A DNA stretch of 40,785 nucleotides, taken from positions 1 to 40,785 of the forward strand of contig JBLFXJ010000020.1 in assembly GCA_047609825.1 (NCBI GenBank). The letters are read 5' to 3'. The notes below the pieces were generated by a model, which saw only the letters and a list, made by a program, of their open reading frames with translations, searched no databases and was not told the DNA's origin. The position numbers and the translations under genes are program-made. This stretch comes from Myxococcota bacterium (GTDB taxonomy: Bacteria > Myxococcota_A > UBA796 > GCA-2862545). Below, piece after piece: positions 1 through 40,389 of the stretch (the stretch's first letter is position 1; each line of letters opens with the position of its first letter).

Positions 1-465
1 TCGGTCCACACCGAGGCGTGGATCCGCACCCGGGACGGCGCGGTGCGGGTCCGGGGTGCGGTGCCCCTCGATCCGGTCGCGGTGGCCGAAGCCCTGCCGG
101 GTGAGGAGGCCGGTCCGTTCACCATCGTGCTCGCGCTGTCGGGTCGGTTCCGGAGCTTCTATGCCGATCGGCCGCTGCCGGAGGGCGTCGACCCCGCCGC
201 GATTCAGCTCGACGGTCGACCCGCGCGGATGGTGGTGGGTGGCTCGGCCGACCTGGTGGCGAACAACCCGGCGCTGGTGGAGAACGCGGTGGACTGGCTG
301 CTGGAGGACGCCGCCCTGGTAGACGTTCGCACCCGCGGTGGCGGCACCGCCGTGCTGCGTGCCCCCGACCCCACCACCGCCCTGTGGCTCAAGGCGGGAA
401 TCGTCGGCGCGCCGCTGGCTGTGCTGTTCCTCGTCGGCCTCGTGGCCCGCCGGAGGCGCCGGTGA
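1..465 (+). CDS. C-terminal fragment of a GldG-like ABC-transporter-associated protein; the 5' end lies outside the window
   Basis: The ORF is open from base 1 in frame 1 and ends with TGA at 463-465. It carries the motif NAVDWLLED..LVDVR followed by a C-terminal TM helix and an RRRRR tail, which is typical of GldG C-termini. The next gene is a DUF4340 protein, the canonical GldG neighbour. Confidence 0.5.
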   Translation, partial: SVHTEAWIRTRDGAVRVRGAVPLDPVAVAEALPGEEAGPFTIVLALSGRFRSFYADRPLPEGVDPAAIQLDGRPARMVVGGSADLVANNPALVENAVDWLLEDAALVDVRTRGGGTAVLRAPDPTTALWLKAGIVGAPLAVLFLVGLVARRRRR

Positions 466-1769
466 CCCGCCCGCGCACCACCTGGGTGCTGCTCGCGGTG
501 CTGTTCGCGCTCGTCTCACTGGATCTGGGCCTGCGCGCCGTGTTGGTGGTGGACGACGCGCCCGTGCCCGAGTGGGCCACTGTGCCTCGGGGCCAGGTCG
601 ACGGCGTGGTGCTCACCCGCCAGGAAGTGGTGGTGCGGCTCGCGCGGGACGATGACGGCCTGTGGACCGTCATCGAGCCGTTCTCTGACCGTGCAGATCC
701 GGCGGCCGTGGTGGCGCTGCTCGATGCGGTGACTCGCGGAGGGCTGCTCGAGGCGCGGGTGGAGGATGACCCCGAGCTGCACGACACATACGGGCTCGCG
801 GGGATCGATCCGATCCGGGTAGCGCTCACCGGGGGCGAGGAGGTGCTCGCCGAGCTGTACATCGGTCGCGATGGGCCCGGGCGCACCACTTTCGTCCGGC
901 TCCCCGGGGCCGATGACGTGTACCGCGCCCGTCTCGGTGGTCGCTCCGTGGCGGACCGTCCCCCAGGCGCGTGGCGCGATCCCACCCTGCTCGCGGTGGC
1001 CCCCGATGACGTGCTCGCCCTGACCGTCCGCGGGCGCGCCGAGCTGTCGTTCGTGCGCGCTTCGGGTCTGGACGGCGCCGGTGGCTGGCTGCTGGAGGGT
1101 CGGCCGGATCTGCCGCTGGACCTCCCCTCGGTCGAGGCCCTCGTGGCGGCGTTCGCCGAGCTGAAGGCACTGGAGGTGCTGCCCGCGCCGCCGGCCGAGC
1201 TGGAGACCCCCGACCTGGTGGTGGATGTGGTGCTCGCCTCGGGCACGGAGACCTTCCGGTTCTCCGCACTCCGGGGCCAGGCGTTCGGGATGCGTGAGCG
1301 CGACGGTCGGGCGTTCCGGGTGCGGTTCGAGCTGCTCTCGGCGCTGGCTCGACCCGTGGCCACCTGGCGCGATCGCACCTTGCTCCGGGTCGACCCCGAG
1401 CGCCTCACCGAGCTGGTGCTCCGGGATGCGGGCGGCGAGGCCGTGCTGTACCGGGAGGGCGGCGAGTGGCAGGCGCGCTCGGTGGGCGTGGATGTGGACC
1501 CTGCCCTGGTCGCGCAGGCGGCGCGGTTCCTCGCAACCCTGGCGGTCGAGGGGTGGGCGGTGGTGCCCCCCGAATCCGCCGGGTTCCCGGGCGCGGAGTC
1601 AGTGGTCCTCCGCGGCGACGGTGTGCGGGTGATCGAGATCGGCGGTCGGGTGCCCGAGCGCCCGCCGGGCCGCGAGGCGCTGTTCGTGCGCATGGCCGAT
1701 GCGCCGGACCAGGTCGGGGCGATTCCCGCCCGCACCTGGAGCGCGTTGCTGCGCGCGTGGGGGCGCTGA
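462..1769 (+). CDS. DUF4340 domain protein with an N-terminal TM anchor (the GldG partner)
   Basis: A GTG at 462 is in frame with the 384..1769 ORF and overlaps the upstream stop (GTGA). The N-terminal hydrophobic segment is WVLLAVLFALVSLDLGL, followed by a long Ala/Leu/Arg-rich soluble region as in DUF4340 proteins. The start is uncertain and could be an upstream ATG. Confidence 0.5.
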   Translation: MTRPRTTWVLLAVLFALVSLDLGLRAVLVVDDAPVPEWATVPRGQVDGVVLTRQEVVVRLARDDDGLWTVIEPFSDRADPAAVVALLDAVTRGGLLEARVEDDPELHDTYGLAGIDPIRVALTGGEEVLAELYIGRDGPGRTTFVRLPGADDVYRARLGGRSVADRPPGAWRDPTLLAVAPDDVLALTVRGRAELSFVRASGLDGAGGWLLEGRPDLPLDLPSVEALVAAFAELKALEVLPAPPAELETPDLVVDVVLASGTETFRFSALRGQAFGMRERDGRAFRVRFELLSALARPVATWRDRTLLRVDPERLTELVLRDAGGEAVLYREGGEWQARSVGVDVDPALVAQAARFLATLAVEGWAVVPPESAGFPGAESVVLRGDGVRVIEIGGRVPERPPGREALFVRMADAPDQVGAIPARTWSALLRAWGR

Positions 1770-1789
1770 AACGCGGGCGGGACGTTGAC

Positions 1790-4051
1790 GTGGGCACGTC
1801 GCCCGTGGATTCATGGCGCCGCACTACCGTCCTCTCCGGAGCGATCGTGTCTGATCCAGCTGCGCTCAGCATCCTACGGACTGCTCTCACTGTGCAAGGC
1901 GCACCCACGCTCTCGGACGACACGCTCGCCGCGTTGGCCGAGCTCGTGGTCCGGCTCGAGGTGGCCGAAGGCACCGTCCTCGCAGACCTGCACTCGGCCG
2001 GAACGTGTGTCTGGTTCGTGGAGTCGGGGGGGATTCTCGTCGATATCGCACCGCGTCCGCGCCTCGTCGGGCCCGCACAGGTGCTCGGTGAGATGGGGGT
2101 GCTGCACAACGCCAGCCGAGCGGCCCGGCTGGTGGCCGAGGCGCCGTCTGTGCTGTTGCAGGTCGACCGCGCCCAGCTCGACCCGTTGCTCCGGTCCCAC
2201 CCCGACCTGCTCGCGGCGTTCGCCGCGGTGGCGAGCGCCCGCCGGCTCGCGGTCGCGCTCGAGCTGGCCATGGCCCGAGCGTTCCCGTCGCTCGACCAGT
2301 CCTCTCGCGATCAGCTGATCGAGGGCGTCGAGTGGGTGGAACTCAAGCGGGGTGAGGTGCTGTTCGAAGAGGGGGCGGAAGCCACGTCCGGCTACCTCGT
2401 AGTGAGCGGCGGGGTGCTCGCGGTGTCGCAGCGCGGTGAGGACTGGCGCGTGTATGGCCACGCCTCCGCTGGCGAGCCGGTGGGCGAGATCGGTATCGTC
2501 TCCACTGCACCGCGCACGGCCACGGTGGTGGCGAAGGTCGACAGCTGGCTCGCCGGGTTCGCCCGCGAGTCCCTGCTCACCGTGCTGTCGCGGCGTCCGA
2601 AGGCGCTACTCGACATCGTCGACACGGTGGTCCGCCGCTTGCACACCCGCGGCCGTGACCTGCCGTCGGTGAAGAACCGGGTGGTCCTGCTCCCGCTGGA
2701 TCCCCGCGTGGACGTGCGCGCCGTCGCGGAAGGGATGGCCGCCGCGGCCGCGTCATGGGGCACGAGCCTCATCCGCGACCGGTCGGAGATGGAGCGCGAC
2801 GGGCTGGTCATCGCGGGGGCGGATCCGGAGACGCCCGGGGCTTGGGTGCGGATGAAGACGTGGCTCGACCTGCAGCGCCATGACGCGACCCATGTGTTCC
2901 TCATCGGCGATCCGGAGCCGAGCGCGTGGAACCGACGCCTGGCCGTGGACGCCGACACCGTGCTGCTGGTGGCGAGCGCCGACGGTACGCCGACGGTGTC
3001 GCCGGTGGAGGGCGCACTACCGCAGCAGATCGTCGACGCCCCGTGGCACCTCGAGCGGTCGCTGGTGTTGGTGCATCCCGCCTCGACGCCCCTGCCCAGC
3101 GGAACAGCCGCGTGGCTCGACGCCCGGCATCTCGACACTTGGTTCCATGTGCGTGCAGGCCGGTCGGATGACCTGGGGCGGGTGGCCCGGTTCCTCGCTG
3201 GGCGCTCCGTCGGGCTCGCGCTGAGCGGCGGCGCGGCCCGGAGCATCGCCCACATCGGCACCTACCAGGCACTGCGGGAGAGCGGGGTTGCGGTGGACCG
3301 GCTGTCGGGCACGTCCGCCGGCGCCATGGTGGGAGCGTTGATCGCCGAAGATGGGCCGTTGCCGGACATCCTCCCCCGAGTGGACGCCGCCATCGCGGTG
3401 TTCGGGGCGACCTGGAAGTCCCTCACGCTGCCCATCGTCAGCCTCGTGGCCAGCCAGCGCGCCGAGGGCGCGCTGAAGTCCCTGTTCGGCGAGCGCCGGA
3501 TCGAGGACCTGTGGATCCCGCTCGACGTGGTCACCACCGACTTGTCGGCCGGTCGTGCAGCCGTGCATGGAACGGGGCCGATCTGGCAGCTGGCCCTGGC
3601 GAGCGGCTCGCCACCCGGGGTGGCGCCGCCGGTGGTGCTGGATGGCCACATGCACTGCGATGGGGGTGTGGTGGACAACCTGCCGGTGGGCGCGCTGGTA
3701 AACGCTGGCTGCAGGGTGTGTCTCGCGTCGTCGGTCGGGCTCGCGCTGGACGGGGAGGTGCGCGAGGTGATCCCGGGCCCGTGGTCGGTGATCTGGCATC
3801 GCCTGCGCGGCGTGCCGCTCACCGGTGTGCCCACGTTGCCCGAGGTGGTGGTGCGGGCCATGGGAATGGCCGGCTACGCCAGCGAGGACCAATACGGCGG
3901 CGCCATCGACATCGCGTTCCATCCGCCGGTCGGCCACATCTCGGTGGTGGACTTCCACCGATCCGAGGAGCTCGTGCGCATCGGTGCGGCCCACGCGCTG
4001 GAGGTGCTGGCCGAGGGCCATCCCCTGCTCTCGGGGGGCACCCATGAGTGA
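1790..4051 (+). CDS. Patatin-like phospholipase with two N-terminal cyclic-nucleotide-binding (cNMP/CAP) domains (NTE-like)
   Basis: Two cNMP-binding signatures are present (GEMGVL...RAARLVA and GEPVGEIGIV...RTATVVA). The patatin glycine-rich loop and catalytic-dyad motifs are GLALSGGAARSIAHIG, GTSAG (G-x-S-x-G) and HCDGGVVDNLPV (the DGG Asp). The start is taken as GTG 1790, in frame just after the DUF4340 stop; the ORF is open from 1466, so the start is uncertain. Confidence 0.8.
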   Translation: MGTSPVDSWRRTTVLSGAIVSDPAALSILRTALTVQGAPTLSDDTLAALAELVVRLEVAEGTVLADLHSAGTCVWFVESGGILVDIAPRPRLVGPAQVLGEMGVLHNASRAARLVAEAPSVLLQVDRAQLDPLLRSHPDLLAAFAAVASARRLAVALELAMARAFPSLDQSSRDQLIEGVEWVELKRGEVLFEEGAEATSGYLVVSGGVLAVSQRGEDWRVYGHASAGEPVGEIGIVSTAPRTATVVAKVDSWLAGFARESLLTVLSRRPKALLDIVDTVVRRLHTRGRDLPSVKNRVVLLPLDPRVDVRAVAEGMAAAAASWGTSLIRDRSEMERDGLVIAGADPETPGAWVRMKTWLDLQRHDATHVFLIGDPEPSAWNRRLAVDADTVLLVASADGTPTVSPVEGALPQQIVDAPWHLERSLVLVHPASTPLPSGTAAWLDARHLDTWFHVRAGRSDDLGRVARFLAGRSVGLALSGGAARSIAHIGTYQALRESGVAVDRLSGTSAGAMVGALIAEDGPLPDILPRVDAAIAVFGATWKSLTLPIVSLVASQRAEGALKSLFGERRIEDLWIPLDVVTTDLSAGRAAVHGTGPIWQLALASGSPPGVAPPVVLDGHMHCDGGVVDNLPVGALVNAGCRVCLASSVGLALDGEVREVIPGPWSVIWHRLRGVPLTGVPTLPEVVVRAMGMAGYASEDQYGGAIDIAFHPPVGHISVVDFHRSEELVRIGAAHALEVLAEGHPLLSGGTHE

Positions 4052-5405
4052 CGTGCTGCAGCACGTGATCTATGCGATCTTTCGGGTGGGAGAGCGGCTC
4101 GGAGCTCCCCTGACCGCGGCCAGTCGAACGGGTGGTCCCCGCGGTGACCCTCGGTCGGAGCTGCGGTCGCAGGCCTACGATGTGGCGCACGCGGCCAGGT
4201 GCTGGCGGGCGCGGCGGATGCGGCTCGCGCCCGGTGCCGTGGACCGGGTGGGGGCGGAGCTGACCGCGACCGAACGCCTGGGCCCTGCGGACTCTCTCGA
4301 CGCGGTGCTGCCGGAGGGGTGGACCGACGGCAACGCGGTGCGGCTGCTGGCGCGGAACTCCGAGGATCAGGCGCGTCGCCTGGCGCTGATCGCGGGTGCG
4401 TCCCGGTCCATCGTGTGTGCGTTCTGGTGCATCCGCGACGACGCCGTGGGGCACGCCTTCGTCGCCGCCCTCGCCGCCCGGGTGCGTGACGGGGTGGACG
4501 TGGTGGTGGTGCTCGACGCGAACGTCCTCGACCGATTCGCGTGGATTGAACAGTCATACGGTGCGTTTGTCACGTCGTTTGCGGCGCAGGGCGTGCCCCT
4601 GGTGGCGCTGCGGCCTGCGCAGCCGTGGCTGAACACACACCGCAAGCTGTTCGCGGTGGACGGCGAGGTCGCCATCGTCGGTGGACGGAACATCGGTGTG
4701 CCCTACGCCACCGACGGTGAGGGCACCTTCCTCGATACCGATCTCGAGATCAGCGGCCCGGGCGCCCTCGCTGTGCACCACCTGGTGGATCGGCTGGCCG
4801 GTCGCCCGCTGACAGAGCTGCCCATGCCCCCGGCCGCAGGGCCGGCCCGGGTGGCGGTGGTCGACCAGCCGGCGGGGCTCGACCCAGTGGACGACGCGGT
4901 CGTGCGGGCGCTGGTCCAGGCGGTGGTGCACGCCCGCGCGTCGGTGGAGATCGCGTTCGGGTACGTGATCCTGCCCGGCGCCCTCGAGCGGGCGCTGGTG
5001 CAGGCGGCAGCACGCGGCGTCGCGGTGCGGGTGCTCACCAACTCCCGGGCCACCAATGACTACCCGTACTGGGAGGGGGCCGCGTTCGCCTCCATCGACG
5101 CCTTGGTGCGGGCAGGGGTGCCGCTGTTCCTGATGCGGGAGCAGACATTGCACGCCAAGTTCGCCGTGGTGGACGGCCGCGTGTGCACGGTGGGCAGCCA
5201 CAACCTGTGGACCCTGTCCACCCTCCACGACGCCGAGACGAATCTGGTGGTGGATGACCCCGAGATCGCCGAGGCCCTGGTGGCGCTGTTCGACGAGCTG
5301 GTGGGCCAGGCGGACCGGGTCGAGCCCGACGGGTGGCAGGTGCCGGACAACCGCTCGCTGCGGCTGGCGAATGCGCTGATCTGGGCGTGGGAGGGGCGGG
5401 GGTAG
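4044..5405 (+). CDS. Phospholipase D-family protein with two HKD motifs (cardiolipin-synthase/PLD-like; a nuclease function is not excluded)
   Basis: ATG 4044 overlaps the upstream TGA in an ATGA arrangement. HKD motif 1 is HRKLFAVDGEVAIVGGRNIG and HKD motif 2 is HAKFAVVDGRVCTVGSHNLW. There is no N-terminal TM helix. Confidence 0.8.
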   Translation: MSDVLQHVIYAIFRVGERLGAPLTAASRTGGPRGDPRSELRSQAYDVAHAARCWRARRMRLAPGAVDRVGAELTATERLGPADSLDAVLPEGWTDGNAVRLLARNSEDQARRLALIAGASRSIVCAFWCIRDDAVGHAFVAALAARVRDGVDVVVVLDANVLDRFAWIEQSYGAFVTSFAAQGVPLVALRPAQPWLNTHRKLFAVDGEVAIVGGRNIGVPYATDGEGTFLDTDLEISGPGALAVHHLVDRLAGRPLTELPMPPAAGPARVAVVDQPAGLDPVDDAVVRALVQAVVHARASVEIAFGYVILPGALERALVQAAARGVAVRVLTNSRATNDYPYWEGAAFASIDALVRAGVPLFLMREQTLHAKFAVVDGRVCTVGSHNLWTLSTLHDAETNLVVDDPEIAEALVALFDELVGQADRVEPDGWQVPDNRSLRLANALIWAWEGRG

Positions 5406-5465
5406 CGAGTCGGCCGGTCGGCACGCGCTCACGGGCTGCCTTCGGAGCCGCACTGGCTCCGACCC

Positions 5466-5924
5466 TCAGCCCTCGCCGAGCAACGGCCGCAGCATCTCCA
5501 GGTCCAGCACGCACTCCCCGGGCCGGTTCTGCTTCTGAGGCCGAAGCGCGTCGGGCAGGTCATGCTGGATGGCCTCATCGAGTGTGTTCGGGAAGAACGC
5601 CACGGGCACCCGACCGCCCGGCTTCCAGCTGCCAAACCGGTTGAGCATCCGGCTCCCGCAGCGCCCACAGAACGCGCGAGTGATCGAGCCTCCCGGCTTG
5701 TGGAACTCCACGAGCAGGTCGGCGCCGCGGGTGAGAGTGAACGTCGATTCGTCGACGCAGGCCACGTGGTACAGCGGTGCGGCGTGGGCCCGGCGGCAGC
5801 TGTCGCAGTGGCAGTACGCGGTGAAGATCGGCGCGGCGCCCTCGGGGATGTGCACGGCGTAGGCGATGCCCCCGCAGTAGCAGTGGCCGGTGACATGGAC
5901 GGCGTCGGCGGGCGTGTTTGGCAT
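5466..5924 (-). CDS. GFA-family protein (glutathione-dependent formaldehyde-activating enzyme / CENP-V-like Zn-binding)
   Basis: The Cys pattern is CYC ... CHCDSC ... CGRCG. The start is taken at the internal Met of MPNTPADAVHV (ATG 5924..5922), giving about 153 aa. The longer ORF to 6026 adds an Arg/Leu-rich N-terminus that is unlikely to be real. Confidence 0.7.
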   Translation of the reverse strand: MPNTPADAVHVTGHCYCGGIAYAVHIPEGAAPIFTAYCHCDSCRRAHAAPLYHVACVDESTFTLTRGADLLVEFHKPGGSITRAFCGRCGSRMLNRFGSWKPGGRVPVAFFPNTLDEAIQHDLPDALRPQKQNRPGECVLDLEMLRPLLGEG

Positions 5925-6040
5925 GCACGTGGGTAACCCTCCGCCGGGCAGCTGGAGCAGAGCTGGCGCCAGCCGAGATCGGAGTCGGGGCTGGCGCATC
6001 TGCACAGTCCTGCACCGAGTGGCCATCCGTCGGATGCCGG

Positions 6041-6211
6041 TCTAGATGACCTCAACGCAGCTTCCGAACCGTCCTCGCACGCCCATGCGGCCCCCTCGCG
6101 CAGGCGTCGGACCGGGCAGATATACTCGATATTCCTTGGGTCCTCACCCGCACGAGGACACCACCTGGACGCGCGATCACCGGCTCGGCATCTCCGCCGA
6201 GGTCATCTAGA
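6041..6211. repeat. 171-bp element bounded by perfect 13-bp inverted repeats (TCTAGATGACCTC / GAGGTCATCTAGA) in the divergent GFA / thioredoxin-fold intergenic region
   Basis: The inverted repeats lie at 6041-6053 and 6199-6211. The 145-bp interior is AT-enriched relative to the genome and contains nested shorter inverted repeats (GTCCTCG...CGAGGAC) and a TATACT box. Confidence 0.6.
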
Positions 6212-6238
6212 TTCCTGGCGTTCGGGTCTGGAGGCACG

Positions 6239-7096
6239 ATGCGGTGGATGGCGTCTGCGGTGCTCCTGCTGGGTTGTGGCGGCGGCGGTGATGGCACTGT
6301 GGCCTGTGGCGAGGGGTCGGTCGACGACGGCACCGGCACCTGCGTGCCGGTGGAGGACGAACGCTGTCTCGAGGGGTTCGCGCAGACCAGCGGTGGCGAC
6401 TGCATCGAGGCGCCGGGAGCGGGCGGGGGGTCACTTCCGGGTGGCTCTGGCACCGGCGGCAGCGGCACGGGCACCGGCGGTACAGGCACGGGCACCGGCG
6501 GGACCGGGACTGGCACTGGGACTGGCACTGGCAGCCCCGCCGACTGCGACTACGAGGGGGGATGGCCCTGCAACCCCGCCAAGGGCAGCCTCGCCGACCC
6601 TGGACTGGACGGGCCGGGCCTGGAGGGCGGCATGCTGCCCCGGTTCGTCGGCATCGACCAGCATGGCGACGCGGTCGAGCTGTGGGACTTCCTCGGCCAC
6701 GGCCGCCCCGTGCTCGTGCAGTTCACCACTGGCTGGGCGCCACCCAGTGTGGCGATGAGCGAGTGGCTGACCGGTGGCGACGACCTCTTTGGCTACGGCT
6801 CTGCGCTGCCGGACGCCATCGCCGAGGGTCGGCTCGAGTACGTGAACCTGCTGCAGGACAGCGGGGGCGGCCCCAGCGCGGAATGTCCCAGGCACTGCGC
6901 TGACTATGCCTCGGAATTCTTCGGCCGCAACGAGGTCGCGGTGCTCGGCGATGGGGACTTCGCGATGTTCGATTGGCTCCGCCTGGCCTACTGGCCGTCG
7001 TTCCTGATCGTGGAGTCCGACGGCACCTTGTCGTGGGTCGAGGGGCAGAGCGGTGACGGGCACGAATGGGTGAGCGAGCTCGAAGATCGGCTGTGA
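6239..7096 (+). CDS. Thioredoxin-fold (TlpA/redoxin-like) lipoprotein with both active-site Cys replaced (WAPPS in place of WCxxC) and a Gly/Thr linker
   Basis: GGAGG lies 8 nt upstream of the ATG. The lipobox is LLLGC. The linker is (GTG)n low complexity. The motif PVLVQFTTGWAPPSVAMSEW aligns to the thioredoxin-fold active-site region but lacks the CxxC. Confidence 0.55.
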   Translation: MRWMASAVLLLGCGGGGDGTVACGEGSVDDGTGTCVPVEDERCLEGFAQTSGGDCIEAPGAGGGSLPGGSGTGGSGTGTGGTGTGTGGTGTGTGTGTGSPADCDYEGGWPCNPAKGSLADPGLDGPGLEGGMLPRFVGIDQHGDAVELWDFLGHGRPVLVQFTTGWAPPSVAMSEWLTGGDDLFGYGSALPDAIAEGRLEYVNLLQDSGGGPSAECPRHCADYASEFFGRNEVAVLGDGDFAMFDWLRLAYWPSFLIVESDGTLSWVEGQSGDGHEWVSELEDRL

Positions 7097-7098
7097 TC

Positions 7099-10053
7099 CT
7101 AAGTCGCGGGGTCGGCGCGCACCGTCTCGGTGAGCTCGCGGAGGAAGGCCCAGGCCAGCGGGGGGTGGTCGTCGATCAGCTCCGTGAGCACCGCGCCGGA
7201 GAATGACAGCACCGTCGTGTCGCTGATCGCGACGACATCGGCTGAGCGGGGACCGGGCGAGAACACGTCCAGCTCGCCAAACACGGCCCCCACGGTCAGC
7301 TCGGCGAGCTGCGCGCCGCGCAGCTCCACCCGAACGCTGCCGCTGACCACCACGAACACCGGCCCGGACGGGTCGCCCGCCCGTACCAACACCGTCCCGG
7401 CAGCGACCTCCGCCACCTCGCAACGGGCGGCGAACGACACCAGCGTGCCGTCGTCCAATGCCTGGAATGGTGCAGCGCGGTGCAGCGCCAGGGCTCTCTC
7501 CCACAAGGGTAGCACAGGCGCCTCCGATTCAAGTAGCAGGGTCATGAGGGGGTCTTCGGGCCGGTCGTGGGCGGGCAACAGGGTCACCGCCAGGGCCGCA
7601 CGAAGCAGCGGGGACTGGGTGGGGTCGTCGGCCAGGCGCTGGGCAGTCGCGCGGGCGTCACCGGCCCGGGGGACGCCGTCGCCGAGCATGGCCTCTGCGA
7701 GCGGCACCAGCCACCGACGGCGCCCGGGCGGCAGGGTGGTGTCGAGCAGCTCCAGCGCCACCGCGGGATCGCCGCGCCGCGCGCCCGTGAGCACGGCGAC
7801 AGCATGCGGATCGGCCTCCGCCACGCTCCTGAGCAGGGCCGACGAGCGCACCAGCGTTCCGCGCACGGCCCGGTGCCACGCCAGCGCCGCCAGCCCGCTG
7901 AGTCCCCGTGCGGCGAGCAACGCGTCGGCACAGCGACGCTCCTGCGCGAGCAACGCCTGGAATACCGTCGCCTCTGGGGGCACCGCGCTCGGCTGCGACA
8001 GCGCGACCACCGCGCGGGTGCGCACGTCAGGGTAGGCCGCGGCCCGTACCAGCAGATCGGTGGCGTGTGCGCCCGGGCTGCGGGACGCGACCGAGATGGC
8101 GAGCGGCCGCACGATCGGGTCGTGCAGGTGGTCTGCGATGAATCGAGCGCCGCCGGCCAGCGCGAGCGCGTCCCGGACGGCCCGGCTCATCGCCGGGTCA
8201 TGCAGGGGGAGGCGCGCGGCCAGCGCTGGGGCGCCTATCGCACCCACCGCGTCCACCGCCGCCAGGCGGGTCGCGAGGTCGGGATGGCTCAGCAGCGACT
8301 CCAGGTGGGCGGCGAGGCCGACCCGCCGGCTGCCCCCGACCACGCGCGCGAGCCGCACGCCAGCCTCAGAAGCACTGAGTCGCTCGAGGGCGGCGAGTGC
8401 GGTGGGCAGGGTGCGTTCACCACCGTGGGCGAGGAGATGGGTCAGTGCGGCGTCGGTGACCGCGGGGTCGGAGTGTGTGAGGAATGGCGCCACCGAGCGG
8501 CCCTGACCCGACACGGCCAGCGCCTCGATCATCGCGATCTGGGCGTCGGCGTCGGGCTCTGCCCCGACCAGATCCTCCAGCCGTCCCACTTCAGTGGGCC
8601 CGGGTCCCAGGGTGGTCAACACCTGCGCGCTCGCAGCCCGCACCCGGGCGTCCGCGTGGATCAGACCCGCAGAGATCTCCTCGCCAACGGAGAATCGGCC
8701 GACCCGCAGGGCGAGCAGGGCGGCGTTGGCGTCGACATTGGCCAGGGACTCCGCGGGGGCGGCCAGCACGGTGTCGGACTGGAATCGGGGGGCGAGGGTG
8801 TCGCGCAGCAACACGGGGTATGCCCGGGCGACAACCAGCGCCGCACCCACCGTGCCGAGCACCAACCCGGCGGTGGCGACAAGGGCTGTGGTGCCAGATC
8901 CGCCGTACCGCGCGACCAGCAGCAGGCCGATGCCTGCCACCCCGGTGGTGAGTGGGCCCACCACGCCGTCGTACCAGGTGAGCGCGCGCACCTGATGTGT
9001 CGCGGGCAACGCGCGGACGAGCGTGCGCACGCTCGGGCCGGTGAACGCGGTGACGGACGCCTCGTTGCCGGCCTTAATCGCCACGATCATCGAGAACACG
9101 AGCAGGTCCGGAGCGCCCAGGCCCAGCCCGACCAGCGCGCCGAGCACCCCGACGGACATCGCGAGCGGGTTGCCCAACAGACCACCGCTGGGACCGGCAC
9201 GCCGCAGCACCCACGGTGAGAGTGCGGCCGTGGCCACCAGGGCCACCAGCGTCATTCCGCCCATGTAGCGGCCGAAGAACACCGCGAGGGCCTCGGGATC
9301 CGGGTACTGCCGCGCCACAGCATCCATGAACGCGAAGTCCGCCACATACGCGCTCGCGGTGGCCAGCGCGTCGTAGGCGAGCAGGGCCACGACGAATCGG
9401 CGCGCGGGGAGCGCCAGCGCAGGGGCTGACCCTCCGCTGGTGTCGCGCACTCGCCGCCCGCGGGCCGTGACCGTGGCCACAGCGGCCGCTCCACCCAGCA
9501 TCAGGGTCACCAGGGCCAGCAGGTGCACCGTGCCGAGCAGGCCCACGATCGCGTCATTGAACACGCCGTAGCTGAGCACCCCGAGCACCACTCCGAGGGT
9601 GAGCAGCGGCAGCAGCCTGCGGCTCTGGCGGAGGTCCAGCAGCGCGTTCGCCTGGCTCCACAAGGCCAGGTTGCCCAACGTCCACAGCACCCGGAACCAC
9701 ACCGGCCCGAGGAAGGTGAGGGCCGCGTCGGTCGGTGCCCGCAGCAGCCCCACCCACTGCACTGCGACCGAGCCCGCCAGCGCCACGAGGGTGCCCACAG
9801 CCACCGCGCGCAGCCCGAACGCTAGCTCTGCCGCCGAGAATGACCAGCCAAAAGCGGTGACGATGGCCGCCGCCGCCAGGTAGGTCCATGGCACGTGCGC
9901 TGAGGTCCAAACGTACAGAAAGTGGGCGTTCGCCGTAGAATAAAACGCGATCATCGCCACGCCGAGCAGCCAGGCCTGCGCGAACAGGCCGACGAACTGT
10001 CCCACCTGATCTCGCCGCAGTCCCAGGCGATCGGCGATGGGGCGTGGGATCAC
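7099..10053 (-). CDS. Multidomain membrane protein: an N-terminal MFS/TLC (ATP:ADP-antiporter-like) transporter domain of about 12 TM, central HEAT/PBS-lyase-like repeats, and a C-terminal cyclic-nucleotide-binding domain
   Basis: There are many hydrophobic helices in the first ~430 aa. Repeated A/L-rich HEAT-like segments follow (..DPAVTDAALTHLLAHGGERTLPTALAAL.. and similar). The C-terminal cNMP-binding domain is VLVRAGDPSGPVFVVVSGSVRVEL...GAVFGELDVF...RSADVVA. Confidence 0.6.
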   Translation of the reverse strand: MIPRPIADRLGLRRDQVGQFVGLFAQAWLLGVAMIAFYSTANAHFLYVWTSAHVPWTYLAAAAIVTAFGWSFSAAELAFGLRAVAVGTLVALAGSVAVQWVGLLRAPTDAALTFLGPVWFRVLWTLGNLALWSQANALLDLRQSRRLLPLLTLGVVLGVLSYGVFNDAIVGLLGTVHLLALVTLMLGGAAAVATVTARGRRVRDTSGGSAPALALPARRFVVALLAYDALATASAYVADFAFMDAVARQYPDPEALAVFFGRYMGGMTLVALVATAALSPWVLRRAGPSGGLLGNPLAMSVGVLGALVGLGLGAPDLLVFSMIVAIKAGNEASVTAFTGPSVRTLVRALPATHQVRALTWYDGVVGPLTTGVAGIGLLLVARYGGSGTTALVATAGLVLGTVGAALVVARAYPVLLRDTLAPRFQSDTVLAAPAESLANVDANAALLALRVGRFSVGEEISAGLIHADARVRAASAQVLTTLGPGPTEVGRLEDLVGAEPDADAQIAMIEALAVSGQGRSVAPFLTHSDPAVTDAALTHLLAHGGERTLPTALAALERLSASEAGVRLARVVGGSRRVGLAAHLESLLSHPDLATRLAAVDAVGAIGAPALAARLPLHDPAMSRAVRDALALAGGARFIADHLHDPIVRPLAISVASRSPGAHATDLLVRAAAYPDVRTRAVVALSQPSAVPPEATVFQALLAQERRCADALLAARGLSGLAALAWHRAVRGTLVRSSALLRSVAEADPHAVAVLTGARRGDPAVALELLDTTLPPGRRRWLVPLAEAMLGDGVPRAGDARATAQRLADDPTQSPLLRAALAVTLLPAHDRPEDPLMTLLLESEAPVLPLWERALALHRAAPFQALDDGTLVSFAARCEVAEVAAGTVLVRAGDPSGPVFVVVSGSVRVELRGAQLAELTVGAVFGELDVFSPGPRSADVVAISDTTVLSFSGAVLTELIDDHPPLAWAFLRELTETVRADPAT

Positions 10054-10242: not shown

Positions 10243-11742
10243 ATGTGGCTCGTGATGCTGATCCTGGTGGGATGTGCGAAGCGACCGCCCGCATCCGATG
10301 CCCTGGTGCTGGCCTCCGTGCCCGACGCCCCGCTCACCCGGCGGGTCACGCTGACCCTCGACCGCCCCGGCACCGCGGCCGTGGAGGTCGACGACGGGAT
10401 GGCGGTGTGGACGGTGACCTCGGATGCGGTGGCGCGTCGGCACGAGCTCACCCTGCTCGGCCTGCCCTCCGACTCGAAGGTCACGCTGGTGCCGGTGCTC
10501 GACGGCACCCGTGGTCAGCCGATGGTCGTGCGCATACCGCCCGTTCCCGGTGCCCCGTTCATCGAGGTTCTCGCCGATTCTGGCCCCGAAGATCGATCCG
10601 GCTGGACCTTGTTCAATGTCGAAGCGCTTGGGGGCGGTCTCCCGAGCGGCCTCGCCGTACTCGACGAGCACCTCCGGCTGGTGCACTGGCTGACCGTGGA
10701 TCCAGGATTCGGGGATGTGCAGATCGGGCCCGACGGCGACCTGGTCGGTCTCGCGGGCGGGAACATCGTGCGCATGGATCTGTGCGGACGCGAGCTCGCG
10801 CGCATCGGCCCGGCGATCGGTGCGGTGGTGCCGGTGGACCTGCCCGAGTCGCTCCACCACGAGGTGATCCCGCTGGACGACGGCAGCTTCGTGGCGCTGT
10901 CGGCCGAGTCGCGGGACGTGCCCGCCTTCCCCACCAGCTACGCCCGGCCAGATGTGCTCGCGCCGGCGACCATCCGCGACGCGTTGGTGGTGCACATCGC
11001 GCCGGACGGGAGGCTGCTGCGGCGGGTGTCGATGGCCGACCTGCTGGACACGCGGCGCATCGGGTTCGACGCCCGCAGTGACCGTGAGGGCGGCGTGTTC
11101 GACTGGGCGCACGCGAACGGCATCGCCATCGCCGACGACGGCACCTGGCTCGTGAGTCTGCGACATCAAGACGCCATCGTGGGCGTATCGCAAGATGATT
11201 CGCTGGCCTTCATCCTGTCGGATCCGGGGGGATGGGTGGCGCCTTGGACCGACGTGCTGATCGTTCCGGACGATCCCGCATACCATCAGCACGCCCCGGC
11301 GATGGATGGTAACGGTCGATTGGTTCTGTTCGACAACCATAATGACGGTGCGACCCCCTACGGTGAGACATCGAGGCGTCCGGCGTTGTCCCGCGCGCTG
11401 GCATGGGATCTGGACCTCGAGGCGGGCACCGCGATCCGGGCGTGGCAGTCCTACGAGACTGCCACTGGGCCGCTGTACGCCGACGCGGTGGGCGATGCGG
11501 ACCCGCTCCCGGGCGGCACGGTCCTGGTGACCTATGGCACGCTACGCAACGAAGAAGGGCTTTCGCCGGATGACACCCCGGGTCCATCGTGGGCGCGCAT
11601 CGTGGAAGTAGACCCCGCAACCGACGCTGTGCACATGGACGTACGGATCACGCTGCCCGGTGCTGACCGGGGCGTGCGGGTGTACCGGGCGGAGCGCATC
11701 GCGCCGCTCACTGAGCGCGACGCTGCAGCGGTGTGCCGCTAG
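10243..11742 (+). CDS. Lipoprotein, putatively an arylsulfotransferase (ASST)-like beta-propeller
   Basis: The lipoprotein signal is MWLVMLILVGC (ATG 10243), which lies internal to the longer 9922 ORF whose N-terminal extension is Arg-rich junk. The motifs FDWAHANGIA and HHEV fall in a beta-rich periplasmic domain. The family assignment is tentative. Confidence 0.5.
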   Translation: MWLVMLILVGCAKRPPASDALVLASVPDAPLTRRVTLTLDRPGTAAVEVDDGMAVWTVTSDAVARRHELTLLGLPSDSKVTLVPVLDGTRGQPMVVRIPPVPGAPFIEVLADSGPEDRSGWTLFNVEALGGGLPSGLAVLDEHLRLVHWLTVDPGFGDVQIGPDGDLVGLAGGNIVRMDLCGRELARIGPAIGAVVPVDLPESLHHEVIPLDDGSFVALSAESRDVPAFPTSYARPDVLAPATIRDALVVHIAPDGRLLRRVSMADLLDTRRIGFDARSDREGGVFDWAHANGIAIADDGTWLVSLRHQDAIVGVSQDDSLAFILSDPGGWVAPWTDVLIVPDDPAYHQHAPAMDGNGRLVLFDNHNDGATPYGETSRRPALSRALAWDLDLEAGTAIRAWQSYETATGPLYADAVGDADPLPGGTVLVTYGTLRNEEGLSPDDTPGPSWARIVEVDPATDAVHMDVRITLPGADRGVRVYRAERIAPLTERDAAAVCR

Positions 11743-12455
11743 CCGGCCGTGACCGTGCAGTGCCCCTCGCCGTCCACGTGACCCACGGTGGTGGCCGCTC
11801 GCTGCACGAAGTCCCACAGAGTGACCACATCCCCGTGGGGGCCGACGCCATACCCAGTCCCCTGAACCGGCGTTGCTTGGAGCTCCTCGGGCGTCAGCCT
11901 CCCGTCCAGGTCCGCGTCTGCGTCCATGAATGCCAGCCCACGAACCACGGCGTCCGGATCCGCCAGGTCGTCATAGAACAGGTGGTCGCCGTGCACGGTG
12001 AGCTCGGTGCGTGCCAGCTCCATGCTCAGGGTGCCGCCCAGGTCGCAGTCGTAGGACGCTGGCTCCATGAGGTCCCAGTCGAACGTCGCTGTGGCGTCAC
12101 CGCAGGTGAGCACACCGGCCACTGCGATGGAGGGTCCGTCGCCGCCGTCGACGACCACTGTCAACCGCTCCACCGCCGCCGACGGGAGGTCCGCCTGCGC
12201 GATGCGCTGGGGCTCGTCCTGCACGAGGTCGCGCCGAGTGGCCCGATCCGACGATGCGAGTGGCCCCTCCGTGCTGTCCAGCGACCACTTCGCCACCACG
12301 ACTTCGAACCGATCGAAGGTCACCGAGCAGCCATCGACGAACACGGTGTCGTCGATCCCTTCGGCGATGAACAATTCGCCCCAGGTGTCGAGGGACCAGG
12401 TTGTCTCGGCTTGGGCACAGCCGAACAGGATCATCCAAGGGGCAGAACGAAGCAT
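11739..12455 (-). CDS. Lipoprotein with a canonical EF-hand Ca-binding loop; last gene of the TonB-dependent uptake operon
   Basis: The lipobox is ILFGC. DADLDGRLTPEE matches the 12-residue EF-hand loop consensus (D-x-D-x-D-G-x-L-T-x-x-E). Its ATG overlaps the upstream stop as ATGA. The convergent stop shares CTAG with the 10243 gene. Confidence 0.5.
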   Translation of the reverse strand: MLRSAPWMILFGCAQAETTWSLDTWGELFIAEGIDDTVFVDGCSVTFDRFEVVVAKWSLDSTEGPLASSDRATRRDLVQDEPQRIAQADLPSAAVERLTVVVDGGDGPSIAVAGVLTCGDATATFDWDLMEPASYDCDLGGTLSMELARTELTVHGDHLFYDDLADPDAVVRGLAFMDADADLDGRLTPEELQATPVQGTGYGVGPHGDVVTLWDFVQRAATTVGHVDGEGHCTVTAG

Positions 12456-12994
12456 CAGTGGGCCTCCAGCATCCAGGCTCGGGTAGACACGACGCCGAAC
12501 CGCACGGCCTCGTCGGTGATCGCGTCGGGGTCGGCTTCGGAGAGCGCAGCGTCCGCCGACCAGGTGAGGGTGAGCTGCTCGGGTCCGCGGAGGCGGAGTG
12601 ACACCGGCAGCCCGGTCACGTCCTGGTCCACGTCCAGCGCCAGTGTCTCGCCGTCCCGCGTGAGCTCCACGGTGTGCACGGTGAACGACGCCTCAACATA
12701 GTGCCCGGCATAGGCAGCCAGCTCGCCCAGAGCGCGCGGCTCGTCGTCAAGCTGCCACTGTCCCAGCAGCTCCGCACCCACGTCTCCGGCGACGCCATGT
12801 CCCGGGTGTGCCCATGCAGCCGTGAGGGGTGTGAGGCCGGCAGTCGAGGGCCAGTGCAGGCGAAGGTCGGAGATCTCCACCGCAGCTGCCGACCACTGCC
12901 CGGTGTTCGCGACACCGGTCACTGGAATCTGGAGATTTACCACGGACACCGGCGCGCATCCGGCGGCGATGCCGAGCAGGAGCGCGAACTGCAT
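12455..12994 (-). CDS. Small lipoprotein (179 aa) in the TonB-dependent uptake operon
   Basis: The internal Met MQFALLLGIAAGC (a lipobox) is the true start. The long 12455..13864 ORF is an Arg-rich artefact upstream of it. ATGA overlaps occur at both ends (12992-12996 and 12453-12457). Confidence 0.55.
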   Translation of the reverse strand: MQFALLLGIAAGCAPVSVVNLQIPVTGVANTGQWSAAAVEISDLRLHWPSTAGLTPLTAAWAHPGHGVAGDVGAELLGQWQLDDEPRALGELAAYAGHYVEASFTVHTVELTRDGETLALDVDQDVTGLPVSLRLRGPEQLTLTWSADAALSEADPDAITDEAVRFGVVSTRAWMLEAH

Positions 12995-19166: not shown

Positions 19167-20116
<950 letters not shown>

Positions 20117-37283: not shown

Positions 37284-37363
37284 GGGTGCCCTGGGGTGGT
37301 GGCGGGCCAGACGGACGCCCCCCGCTCAGGTGAGCGAGGGGCGAGAGCGGGTGTGGGCCGGCA

Positions 37364-37382
37364 GGCGTGCGGAGCGCACGCC
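37364..37382. other. GC-rich hairpin (8-bp stem, 3-nt loop) in the 119-bp gap between the flotillin and giant ATPase genes
   Basis: The stem is GGCGTGCG gag CGCACGCC. No U-tract follows it. Confidence 0.35.
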
Positions 37383-37402
37383 CGACGGCGGAGAGCCGAG
37401 GC

Positions 37403-39538: not shown

Positions 39539-39543
39539 CGAGG

Positions 39544-40389
39544 CTACTCCTCCGAGAGAGACTTGTTGCGGGTTGTGGCGGCCTGGGCTGCCAGGGACTG
39601 ACCGGCACGCGCCGGGGCCCCGAGTGGAGCGGTGAGGGGCTCGATGACGAACGCCTCACGCTTGCGGTCGAACGACACGATCAGGGCGCGCTGGCCCTTT
39701 CGCAGGGTGTTGTCAGCCGTGTCGCAGCGCACCTGGAACAGCAGGTCGTCGCCGCCGACCATCGCGATGGCCTGACCGAATCGGCCGTCGACGCGGCCCG
39801 TGGTGATCTCGCACGCCTCGCCGACGAGGGAGTTGCGCTCGCGGGCGTGGGCCACCTTGAACACCGGCTCGACCGGGCGGGTGGCCACGTTTGTGAATGC
39901 GGTGGCGAGGAGCGATGCCGTGAGGAAGATCAAGGCGCCGAGCACGGCTCCATGCAGCGCGACGCTGGCCTGGAGTGCGGTCCAGGTGAGCAGGAAGCTG
40001 GTGAACCAGCCGCCGAACACGAACAGGGACAGGGTGATGGTGGCGGGCACCCGGCCGAGCCGGAGGGCGTTCGCGATGAACTTGAGCGCGCTGAAGCTCT
40101 CGGCGGAGCCGTCCATGTCGGCGTCGAGGTCGGTGTCGGCCTCCACGGCGCCGTCGATGGCATCGGCGGCGCCGTCTACGGCACCATCCATCGCTCCATC
40201 GAGCGCGCCGTCGATGGCACCGTCCATCGCGCCTTCGAGGCCCTCGCCGGCACCGTCGAGCACGCCGTCCATCAGGTCGATGTCGGCCGCGCCGAGCATC
40301 ACGGTGACCCAGTACAGCAGCACCAGGCCGAGCGAGACCGAGAACACGATCGTGGGGAAGGAGACCAGAATGTCGAAGAAACCCTGCAT
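39544..40389 (-). CDS. YqiJ/NfeD-like inner-membrane protein (the flotillin partner) with a DGAxD pentapeptide repeat tract
   Basis: TM helices flank an acidic (GAMDGAIDGALDGAMDGAVDGA..) repeat region. The C-terminal soluble domain resembles the NfeD OB-fold-like domain. It lies immediately upstream of the flotillin gene with a 5-bp gap, as in E. coli yqiJK. Confidence 0.6.
   Translation of the reverse strand: MQGFFDILVSFPTIVFSVSLGLVLLYWVTVMLGAADIDLMDGVLDGAGEGLEGAMDGAIDGALDGAMDGAVDGAADAIDGAVEADTDLDADMDGSAESFSALKFIANALRLGRVPATITLSLFVFGGWFTSFLLTWTALQASVALHGAVLGALIFLTASLLATAFTNVATRPVEPVFKVAHARERNSLVGEACEITTGRVDGRFGQAIAMVGGDDLLFQVRCDTADNTLRKGQRALIVSFDRKREAFVIEPLTAPLGAPARAGQSLAAQAATTRNKSLSEE

Follow-up and report, generated by a model that had tools for sequence, protein, structure and literature searches.

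Two overlapping genes on the forward strand of the 40.8-kb stretch of Myxococcota DNA analysed here (the window) encode a patatin lipase of the neuropathy-target-esterase (NTE) type with two cyclic-nucleotide (cNMP)-binding domains, designated gene A, and a cardiolipin synthase (Cls)-like enzyme of the phospholipase D (PLD) superfamily, designated gene B. The domain content of both proteins, their intact catalytic and ligand-binding motifs, the overlap between the two genes and their conserved neighbourhood were observed directly. Individually, these are ordinary enzymes; their pairing probably serves the signal-controlled remodelling of membrane lipids. On balance, we favour a model in which the two genes are co-transcribed, are probably translationally coupled and form a module for cNMP-responsive phospholipid deacylation and head-group exchange, by which the turnover or remodelling of membrane phospholipids would be placed under the control of a signal.

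Domain architecture of the patatin lipase

Gene A ends at position 4051 and has two possible starts. GTG 1790 gives a protein of 753 aa (coding 1790-4048, in-frame stop TGA 4049-4051), and GTG 1847, which is preceded by GGAG, gives a protein of 734 aa and is the start used in a public gene call of that length, from a Myxococcota MAG, named 'RssA/CRP-like cAMP-binding protein'. The identity of gene A to any homologue found is at most 39%. A Pfam search placed both genes and their domains as first annotated, with strong statistics. In gene A, cNMP_binding matches two stretches (E 3.7e-23, 81.7 bits in total), followed by NTE_Ploop (PF24179; E 5.5e-11, 43.1 bits against a cut-off of 27, a partial match covering profile positions 56-159 of 223) and Patatin (E 2e-24, 87 bits against a cut-off of 27.7). 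The order of cNMP-binding domains and patatin, from which an NTE-type lipase had initially been proposed, agrees with these matches, including that to the family-specific NTE_Ploop.

The first cNMP-binding domain occupies approximately residues 45-135 (1922..2194) and the second, which is the best Pfam cNMP_binding stretch, residues 183-268 (2336..2593). The NTE-family P-loop-like linker domain (residues 352-457; 2843..3160) is kept across the homologue alignment, its ADxVLLVA motif included, and the patatin catalytic domain (residues 476-636; 3215..3697) aligns with the solved structure of PlpD (5fqu, E 1e-21). The catalytic motifs, located by regular expression, are all intact, i.e. the oxyanion motif GGAAR (residues 480-484; 3227-3241), the nucleophile motif GTSAG (residues 507-511; 3308-3322) and the catalytic Asp motif DGG (residues 624-626; 3659-3667). 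GTSAG and DGG had been recognised from the outset; the GxGxxG motif noted alongside them was not recovered by regular expression, the glycine-rich patatin motif of gene A being GGAAR. A crude hydropathy scan revealed no transmembrane (TM) segment in gene A, and no signal peptide was found.

The PLD partner belongs to a rare subfamily

Gene B (4044-5405, coding 4044-5402) encodes a soluble, ClsB-like enzyme of 453 aa with two HKD motifs, which is matched by Pfam PLDc_2 in two stretches (E 2.7e-33) and by PLDc (E 5e-8). Its start at ATG 4044 is backed by homologues, in which the N-terminus is conserved almost to residue 1. HKD motif 1, HRKLFAVDGEVAIVGGRN (residues 199-216; 4638..4691), and HKD motif 2, HAKFAVVDGRVCTVGSHN (residues 370-387; 5151..5204), were located by regular expression; in an alignment of 36 sequences H199, K201 and D206 of the former are invariant or nearly so, and H370, K372 and D377 of the latter are invariant. 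The hydropathy scan gave no convincing TM segment, with one borderline match inside the catalytic core, and no signal peptide was found. The best NCBIfam match is ClsB (NF008427), with 111.5 bits against a cut-off of 281 over residues 92-422, and bac_cardiolipin (TIGR04265) reaches 100.3 bits against a cut-off of 290. As the ClsB equivalog cut-off is missed (111 against 281 bits), cardiolipin synthesis by gene B is putative. Identity with the DISARM protein DrmC was rejected (51.8 bits against a cut-off of 133, with no DISARM genes nearby).

The initial annotation held that gene B could equally be an HKD nuclease. This was overstated at the sequence level, the ClsB, bacterial Cls and NucT models scoring 111, 100 and 20 bits, respectively, and the occurrence of distant gene B relatives in ClsB-type EEP neighbourhoods also argues against equal weight for a nuclease. 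Nuc-type HKD nucleases (Nuc, NucT, Zucchini) have a single HKD domain of ~150-200 aa and form homodimers, an organisation that gene B does not share.

The AF2 model of gene B (pLDDT 86, pTM 0.89) matches the folds of PLD, PssA and related enzymes, and the best matches include hydrolytic PLDs (7e0m, Streptomyces PLD and Pseudomonas aeruginosa PldA). These matches and the scores below the Cls equivalog cut-offs would accord with gene B being a hydrolytic phospholipase D or another phosphodiesterase, such that the pair recycles nutrients by the complete degradation of phospholipids into head group, fatty acids and glycerophosphate; the HKD chemistry of the PLD superfamily permits either hydrolysis or transphosphatidylation. 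We regard such a degradative role as distinctly improbable, as the nearest characterised models by sequence are ClsB and bacterial Cls, and neither protein has a signal peptide, which suggests that both act on the cell's own lipids. Hydrolysis by gene B is really a sub-variant of the model of deacylation and head-group exchange.

Residues 1-91 of gene B (4044..4316) form an N-terminal extension that was delimited by homologue conservation and is predicted in the AF2 model to contain two helices (residues 2-18 and 36-60). The extension, of ~90 residues, is conserved in P0002, L006, P0085 and P0086 and is absent from ordinary Cls/ClsB relatives; matches to generic Cls-like proteins begin at profile position ~90. 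When 1.84 billion representatives at 50% identity, from a library of ~15 billion proteins, were searched exhaustively with HMMER, the top scores were 782, 364 (a fragment), 354 and 282 bits, below which lies a continuum at 189 bits or less of proteins that do not carry the extension. With four or five 50%-identity representatives outscoring the generic Cls-like matches, the PLD subfamily of gene B is very rare and sharply delimited.

Overlap and conserved linkage of the two genes

Direct reading of the sequence and of the open reading frames places an 8-nt overlap, ATGAGTGA, between gene A and gene B (4044..4051). The start codon of gene B (ATG 4044-4046) sits within the closing codons of gene A, stop included (TGA 4049-4051), and a G-rich, Shine-Dalgarno-like run is present upstream at 4033-4038. 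An overlap between the stop of gene A and the ATG of the PLD gene had been noted initially, but as a 4-nt ATGA; the TGA at 4045-4047 is out of the gene A frame. The accompanying suggestion of a co-expressed lipid-remodelling pair is the best reading given the conserved neighbourhood, with the 8-nt overlap in place of ATGA coupling. In the homologous pair of locus L006, correcting the PLD start to GTG 9842, which a public call of 459 aa confirms, leaves a gap of 8 nt between the two genes.

Of five clear lineages whose context could be read, in a sample of only five or six, four have the PLD subfamily next to a cNMP-NTE_Ploop-patatin gene. The two genes are in tandem in the window (8-nt overlap) and in L006/L007 (8-nt gap), convergent and 221 nt apart in L004/L005 (42% GC), and divergent and 182 nt apart in L020 (44% GC), and host GC content spans 42-72%. 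Other flanking genes differ between the pairs, except for a membrane-protein gene that the window shares with L006. As the flanks are otherwise unshared and both orientation and GC content vary, the adjacency has outlived rearrangement and large compositional divergence, and the tandem, convergent and divergent arrangements across such hosts make the linkage look selected. The persistence of the two genes as neighbours in related sequences, on which their initial reading as a linked pair had been staked, is thereby borne out.

The linkage is one-way, in that the PLD subfamily is nearly always found with a patatin whereas most NTE-like patatins have no PLD neighbour, and the four PLD-linked patatins are not monophyletic (0 of 100 bootstraps in a small neighbour-joining tree). 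The 11.9-kb contig of one clear subfamily member, P0086 (L019), carries no patatin gene, and among ordinary ClsB-like relatives the partner is an EEP phosphatase and not a patatin. The patatins with no PLD neighbour and the one PLD with no patatin in view could indicate functionally independent housekeeping enzymes, whose adjacency and overlap stem from compact packing or inherited synteny only, and in high-GC genomes a stop codon often overlaps the next start. We consider such independence improbable, since adjacency in four of five lineages, in three orientations, with mostly unshared flanks and at 42-72% GC, is not expected of passive synteny.

The cNMP-binding domains as candidate sensors

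Each cNMP-binding domain of gene A contains a phosphate-binding cassette, GEMGVLHNASRAA in the first (2087-2125) and the canonical GEIGIVSTAPRTA in the second (2483-2521), both located by regular expression. The cassette Glu and Arg are present in both, so that the conserved residues on which the initial description of the lipase as 'cNMP-gated' depended are kept. GEIGIVSTAPRTA matches the cassette of PKA RI-alpha/beta residue for residue, GE..PR(A/T)ATV, and residues 47-156 align with the MlotiK1 CNBD and residues 38-269 with PKG. From the sequence, we infer that gene A is controlled by cAMP or cGMP.

It is conceivable, though in our view rather unlikely, that the pair acts on lipids and that the CAP-type domains are not cyclic-nucleotide sensors but serve a structural or autoinhibitory purpose, or bind a protein or a different ligand. 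The partner patatin of L004 has a single cNMP-binding (CNB) domain in which the cassette Arg is lost (R to V; EPVSAS), and in CNB-2 of the L006 partner both the Glu (E to V) and the Arg (R to Y) are replaced, which indicates that cNMP gating is not constant across the pair. The window holds no cyclase in its 40.8 kb, and the function of the CNB domains of eukaryotic NTE has been called 'still unknown' (PMC12710771). However, both cassettes in the window are canonical, as are those of L006 CNB-1 and the L020 CNB, and ~1.7 kb downstream of the pair there is a gene for another cNMP-binding protein. The more distant NTE-like patatins often have a class III cyclase gene no more than two genes away, which ties the family to cNMP signalling.

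Genomic context and a possible third component

The L004 pair is flanked by PUFA-synthase-type PKS genes and a cyclopropane-fatty-acid synthase, and the L020 pair by a PlsC-like acyltransferase and a FabD-like acyltransferase. The gene for P0087 (L021), a borderline PLD member, is flanked by those for a CHASE2 class III cyclase, an Rce1-like membrane protein that binds cNMP and a fatty-acid desaturase. The flanks of the pair in the window are housekeeping or envelope genes, and no Exo_endo_phos gene occurs in the window. A possible third component is a 984-aa membrane protein encoded on the reverse strand (7099..10053), convergent with the PLD gene. It consists of a polytopic membrane domain (residues 1-430, ~11-12 TM helices in the hydropathy scan), HEAT repeats (weak Pfam matches) and a C-terminal cNMP-binding domain (Pfam cNMP_binding, E 3.9e-16). 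The membrane domain is 50% identical to the product of the gene directly beside, and convergent with, the PLD gene in L006/L007, and a family search gave only weak matches, to the TLC / NTP-NDP exchanger family.

Nucleotide-activated patatins and cNMP-binding-domain proteins are also effectors of CBASS and Pycsar, respectively, the latter seen among the PADLOC matches; CapV is a patatin phospholipase that is switched on by a nucleotide second messenger (PMC12480259). By the same logic, the pair could be an anti-phage, abortive-infection or toxin module, in which a cyclic-nucleotide alarm causes the patatin to destroy the membrane and the PLD acts as a nuclease, as in DISARM DrmC. We hold this to be very improbable. 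CapV has a different sensor and binds cGAMP, and there is no cyclase partner or defence-island context in the window, in which no CD-NTase, PycC cyclase or other defence gene lies near the pair and the flanks have the housekeeping or envelope functions noted above. The scores fall below the cut-offs for CBASS_lipase (15.4 bits, cut-off 200) and DrmC (51.8 bits, cut-off 133), the PADLOC matches are limited to the shared generic cNMP and PLD domains, and elsewhere the contexts comprise lipid biosynthesis genes, not defence islands.

Comparison with known systems

Gene A shares with eukaryotic NTE/PNPLA6, Drosophila Swiss-cheese (SWS) and yeast Nte1 the succession of CAP-type cNMP-binding domains, NTE P-loop-like domain and patatin domain with a GxSxG/DGG dyad. 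Eukaryotic NTE enzymes deacylate PC and lyso-PC (PMC9025805), and in SWS, the fly NTE orthologue, the CNB sites are required for phospholipase function (PMC12710771). In contrast to the eukaryotic enzymes, gene A has two CNB domains and not three, lacks an N-terminal TM anchor, is about half as long and has a dedicated PLD partner gene, for which the literature searched offered no eukaryotic counterpart. A similar cNMP and patatin/NTE architecture is present in Mycobacterium tuberculosis Rv2565 and the MFS-fused Rv3728/Rv3239c, which McCue, McDonough and Lawrence, in a paper from 2000 that appears among the references of PMC2447327, reportedly predicted to be bacterial cNMP-binding NTE-like proteins. 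Database relatives of gene A at 27-36% identity include MFS fusions; gene A itself differs from the mycobacterial proteins in having no MFS fusion, and from the other family members inspected in being paired with a PLD. Bacterial proteins of this kind, such as Rv2565, are still listed as hypothetical (PMC10865251), and the literature searched yielded no biochemical data or experimentally established function for them.

Gene B resembles Escherichia coli ClsB (ybhO), a soluble two-HKD enzyme of the Cls type without the N-terminal TM helices of ClsA, but falls far under the equivalog cut-off of 281 and has the additional conserved N-terminal extension. The ybhP-clsB neighbourhood combines an HKD cardiolipin synthase with an EEP/synaptojanin-like phosphatase (PMC12419801). 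Gene B relatives at 31-34% identity (L016, L018) likewise adjoin an EEP/Exo_endo_phos gene, whereas beside gene B the NTE-like patatin takes the place of this neighbour. ClsB performs head-group exchange, and the output of ClsC is raised by the adjacent gene ymdB (PMC8027125). ClsC-YmdB thus provides a precedent, in which a PLD-type Cls relies for its output on a neighbouring gene product, although the partner there is a macrodomain protein and not a lipase.

Proposed model and its implications

For the pair, we infer gating by cNMP, action on lipids, cooperation (physical or functional) and a physiological role as follows. Gene A would be a cytoplasmic or peripheral serine lipase of the NTE/PNPLA6 type with Ser509 and Asp624 as its dyad, acting as a lysophospholipase or phospholipase A/B, and the binding of cAMP or cGMP to its two N-terminal CAP-type domains would control its activity. 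Gene B would be a soluble, ClsB-like two-HKD phosphatidyltransferase that shares the lipid pool of gene A and performs head-group exchange, condensation or hydrolysis, for instance converting PG/PE to cardiolipin or PG, or releasing phosphatidate, and might dock to the lipase or the membrane via its subfamily-specific N-terminal helical extension. Physiologically, the pair could help the membrane to adapt, possibly through its unsaturated or PUFA-containing lipids.

A more speculative proposal, which we rate as rather unlikely, is that the N-terminally extended Cls-like PLD is the obligate partner of bacterial NTE-type lipases, in a complex that is docked via the helical extension and turns a cAMP/cGMP signal into a defined change of membrane lipids. 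Its outputs could be, e.g., lyso- or remodelled cardiolipin, or the turnover of PUFA-containing phospholipids, and the polytopic membrane protein with a cNMP domain might act as a lipid transporter or anchor. If true, this would provide the first function for bacterial NTE homologues and a simple two-protein system for CNB control of NTE/PNPLA6 catalysis.

In humans, NTE/PNPLA6 is a disease gene, for whose cyclic-nucleotide-binding domains no role is yet agreed (PMC9025805, PMC12710771). A compact bacterial NTE with canonical cassettes and a dedicated PLD gene linked to it would make the control of a patatin lipase by cNMP amenable to study. Without functional coupling, the two enzymes would be no more than their routine annotation suggests. 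As a coupled module, the pair would add a third arrangement of a Cls with a partner gene to ClsB-YbhP and ClsC-YmdB, and would point to cAMP/cGMP acting directly on the lipid composition of bacterial membranes and not via transcription.

Architecture of the lipase-PLD gene pair

The window (40,785 bp, approximately 72% GC) derives from a metagenome-assembled Myxococcota bacterium and encodes an NTE-like patatin lipase (1790-4051, +), followed directly on the same strand by a two-HKD, ClsB-like protein of the PLD family (4044-5405, +). The initial annotation had read the lipase as two cNMP-binding domains preceding a patatin domain, and Pfam confirms this order at the same place, with two cNMP_binding stretches (E 3.7e-23), an NTE-family P-loop-like domain (NTE_Ploop, PF24179; 43 bits against a cut-off of 27) and a Patatin domain (E 2e-24). 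Of the catalytic motifs, GTSAG (residues 507-511) and DGG (624-626) are present as claimed; GxGxxG is absent, and the glycine-rich motif is instead GGAAR (480-484). On alignment, the phosphate-binding cassettes of both cNMP-binding domains, GEMGVLHNASRAA at residues 100-112 and GEIGIVSTAPRTA at residues 232-244, retain the Glu that binds ribose and the Arg that binds phosphate, and the second lines up position by position with the cassette of PKA RI. Translation could begin at GTG 1790 or at GTG 1847; the latter is preceded by GGAG, is used in the public gene call and may be the true start. The same organism has been assembled a second time (L001; JGI 3300054698, 8.8-kb contig), and there the lipase gene carries a 1-nt deletion at 2483-2485 (approximately 2508 in the window), inside the cassette of the second cNMP-binding domain. 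This deletion, possibly an assembly artefact and possibly a genuine variant, shifts the frame and thereby yields a 508-aa public call devoid of cNMP domains (MFT5459748.1).

The lipase and PLD genes overlap by 8 nt (ATGAGTGA), and the in-frame stop of the lipase is the second TGA (4049-4051), rather than the ATGA stop-start junction previously proposed. Homologues of the PLD keep the N-terminus almost from residue 1, in support of the start at 4044. Together with an SD-like run of G at the junction, the overlap suggests that the genes are co-transcribed and probably coupled in translation. A promoter and terminator consensus scan of positions 1-7200 found neither, which carries no information at 72% GC, and no tandem repeat in the window bears on the pair. 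No convincing TM helix or signal peptide is seen in either protein. At the level of domains, our reading agrees with the existing automated entries for the lipase (MFT4622226.1, ‘putative acylesterase/phospholipase RssA/CRP-like cAMP-binding protein’) and the PLD (MFT4622227.1, ‘cardiolipin synthase’). The earlier observation is correct save for small details.

A rare subfamily of Cls-like PLD proteins

The PLD comprises two PLDc_2 stretches (E 2.7e-33) with both HKD motifs intact, and the catalytic H, K and D are invariant or nearly so in an alignment of 36 sequences. By sequence profile, its nearest model is ClsB (111 bits over residues 92-422), followed by the bacterial cardiolipin-synthase model (100 bits), with DrmC (52 bits), PssA (21 bits) and NucT (20 bits) well behind; all of these scores are far below the equivalog cut-offs, and by score the protein is not a ClsB orthologue. 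The suggestion that it could equally be an HKD nuclease is thus disfavoured by the profiles, although a fold search does not tell lipid enzymes apart from PLD4, an exonuclease with two HKD motifs, and we therefore dropped the structural argument against a nuclease and kept the one from sequence profiles. That the PLD is purely hydrolytic, which would be a variant of the main model and not an alternative to it, we regard as highly improbable.

When 1.84 billion representatives at 50% identity were searched exhaustively with a profile of the PLD, the top scores were 782, 364 (a fragment), 354 (P0085) and 282 bits (P0086), followed by a sharp break. The borderline relative P0087 scored 189 bits, and from there the matches grade continuously into generic Cls-like proteins, whose alignments start only at profile position ~90. 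The score break and this late alignment place the PLD in a very small subfamily whose hallmark is an additional conserved N-terminal extension of ~90 residues, for which a structure model predicts two helices. Two other relatives (P0005 and P0013, 31-34% identical to the PLD) are adjoined by an Exo_endo_phos gene and belong to ordinary ClsB-type loci, with the ybhP-clsB-type neighbourhood in which an HKD-Cls accompanies a synaptojanin-like phosphatase (PMC12419801).

Conservation of the pair

The initial annotation had tied its pairing to whether the two genes remain neighbours in relatives. Among all members of the PLD subfamily with a readable contig, patatin and PLD are adjacent in four of the five clear lineages, the window included, in three different orientations. 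In L006/L007 (one organism, 100% nucleotide identity, 72% GC), a PLD 56% identical to that of the window lies immediately downstream, on the same strand, of a cNMP-NTE_Ploop-patatin 39% identical to the window lipase; the gap is 8 nt once the PLD start in L006 is corrected to GTG 9842, as confirmed by the public 459-aa gene call. In L004/L005 (42% GC), the PLD is 50% identical and the patatin, with one cNMP-binding domain and 28% identity, is convergent at a distance of 221 nt. In L020 (Tara Oceans, 44% GC), the PLD is 35% identical and a cNMP-NTE_Ploop-patatin is divergent, 182 nt away. The fifth lineage (L019, the locus of P0086; 38% GC) has a PLD 29% identical and no patatin on its 11.9-kb contig, where the upstream view spans only 1.2 kb. 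A scan of metagenome contigs with the subfamily alignment detected no relative and one of genome contigs detected only L007 and one distant Cls-like locus, so that the census rests on five or six lineages. The MAG containing L007 (CAYZVO010000102.1), and with it the PLD most closely related to that of the window, is labelled ‘uncultured Enterobacterales bacterium’; the locus has 72% GC and shares a membrane protein (50% identical) with the Myxococcota window, and the label looks unreliable.

Coincidental adjacency of the two genes is hard to square with the three orientations and the spread in GC content, and we consider it very unlikely. The PLDs of L006 (72% GC) and L004 (42% GC) are 57% identical, and of the window genes tested beside the pair elsewhere, only the membrane-protein gene is shared. 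The orientations, the unshared flanks and the GC spread point to selection for linkage, as read from these sequences, rather than residual synteny, and the pair has possibly been transferred jointly. The association is one-way, as three NTE-like patatins of greater distance (P0058, P0059 and P0065, 33-36% identity) have no PLD neighbour. In a small NJ tree, the PLD-linked patatins fall into two groups (window and L006, 100% bootstrap; L004 and L020, 56%; all four, 0%). This tree does not unite them in a single clade, and we therefore make no claim of strict co-evolution.

Genomic surroundings

The remaining genes of the window are of the chromosomal housekeeping or envelope type. A GldG-like C-terminus and a DUF4340 protein are encoded upstream of the lipase; elsewhere are a TonB-dependent receptor, MsrA, an M16 peptidase and a DUF3686 giant ATPase of 1,890 aa (31608-40389, -; DUF3686, ‘ATPase involved in DNA repair’, E 5e-200; DUF7902; AAA_5). 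The latter forms an apparent operon with two same-strand upstream genes (710 and 280 aa), which have no Pfam or PADLOC match. A near-perfect hexamer repeat, (GGTGTC)x14 (19827-19910, 98% matches), sits among overlapping high-GC ORFs without a family match. Rfam and tRNA scans of the window were negative, and it contains no integrase, transposase, defence gene or nucleotide cyclase. A defence or toxin module, suggested by PADLOC matches to generic domains alone, lacks a cyclase, model-level scores and a defence-island context; we rejected this identity as most improbable.

At 1.7 kb downstream of the pair lies a 984-aa protein (7099-10053, -) that combines a membrane domain of ~11-12 TM helices with HEAT repeats and, at the C-terminus, a cNMP-binding domain. 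In L006/L007, the PLD is abutted convergently by a stand-alone membrane protein of 467 aa (11196-12599, - in L006) that shares 50% identity with this membrane domain. The 984-aa protein may be a third component of the module, or the resemblance may reflect synteny between two related Myxococcota-like genomes. The membrane domain has only sub-threshold Pfam and NCBIfam matches to the TLC / NTP-NDP exchanger family and no match in a profile search against PDB sequences, and its single-sequence AF2 model has a pLDDT of 45. Compared with the L006 order, the window has two additional genes separating the PLD from the membrane protein, a GFA-family gene (5466-6026, -) and a predicted lipoprotein gene (6239-7096, +; lipobox LLLGC, no family match). 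The Gly/Thr-rich linker of the lipoprotein arises from a 21-nt tandem repeat at 6449-6516.

Proposed role of the pair

The domains, motifs, gene overlap and conserved adjacency are established by the sequences themselves; for the gating, substrates, cooperation and physiological role of the pair, we infer the following model. The lipase would be an NTE-type Ser-Asp acyl hydrolase that deacylates phospholipids or lysophospholipids, by analogy with PNPLA6, SWS and Nte1 (PMC9025805). Control by cAMP or cGMP is plausible in view of its two canonical CAP-type domains, and in fly SWS the cNMP-binding sites are needed for phospholipase function (PMC12710771). That these domains do not sense cyclic nucleotides is unlikely in our judgement, and would again be a variant of the main model and not an alternative; the L004 partner patatin and the second cNMP-binding domain of the L006 partner have lost the cassette Arg. 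The window itself is without a cyclase. Ties to cNMP signalling appear repeatedly: the window encodes the 984-aa protein with its cNMP-binding domain, and a class III cyclase lies within two genes of two of the three unpaired NTE-like patatins. One cNMP patatin without a PLD is near an FHA-GAF-cyclase (L009, 1248-5782), at a locus that also encodes a PPDK_N and cNMP-binding protein and phosphatidylserine decarboxylase; another is near a cyclase-AAA_16-TPR protein (L014, 1-3426). The borderline PLD relative P0087 (L021, 2030-8088; 32% identical) is surrounded by a CHASE2 class III cyclase, transcribed divergently, a cNMP-binding Rce1-like/CPBP membrane protein and a fatty-acid desaturase, which makes a further neighbourhood of cNMP and lipid genes, with no patatin in it.

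The PLD would be soluble and, like ClsB, a phosphatidyltransferase; ClsB of E. coli makes cardiolipin from PG by condensation and replaces the head group of PE with glycerol (PMC8027125). The output of E. coli ClsC is raised by the adjacent gene ymdB (PMC8027125), a precedent for a PLD-type enzyme working with an operon partner. The N-terminal helices of the subfamily are a candidate docking element. In this proposal, a cyclic-nucleotide signal would prompt the pair to remodel or turn over the membrane phospholipids of its own cell. Lipid genes flank the pair in L004, with PUFA-synthase-type megasynthases (KS-AT-ACP-KR; KS-CLF-FabA-FabA) and a cyclopropane-fatty-acid synthase (1-9293 and 13597-14757), and in L020, with PlsC-like and FabD-like acyltransferases (3089-4667).

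The literature searched contained no description of the pair (patatin, cardiolipin synthase and operon; PUFA synthase and patatin) and no biochemistry for the bacterial cNMP-NTE proteins, of which M. tuberculosis Rv2565 and Rv3728 continue to be given as hypothetical (PMC10865251). What is new is that a rare, N-terminally extended subfamily of Cls-like PLDs stands in conserved partnership with NTE-like cNMP-binding patatins. An obligate cNMP-responsive lipase-PLD complex is a doubtful extension of this partnership; if true, it would provide a function for bacterial NTE homologues.
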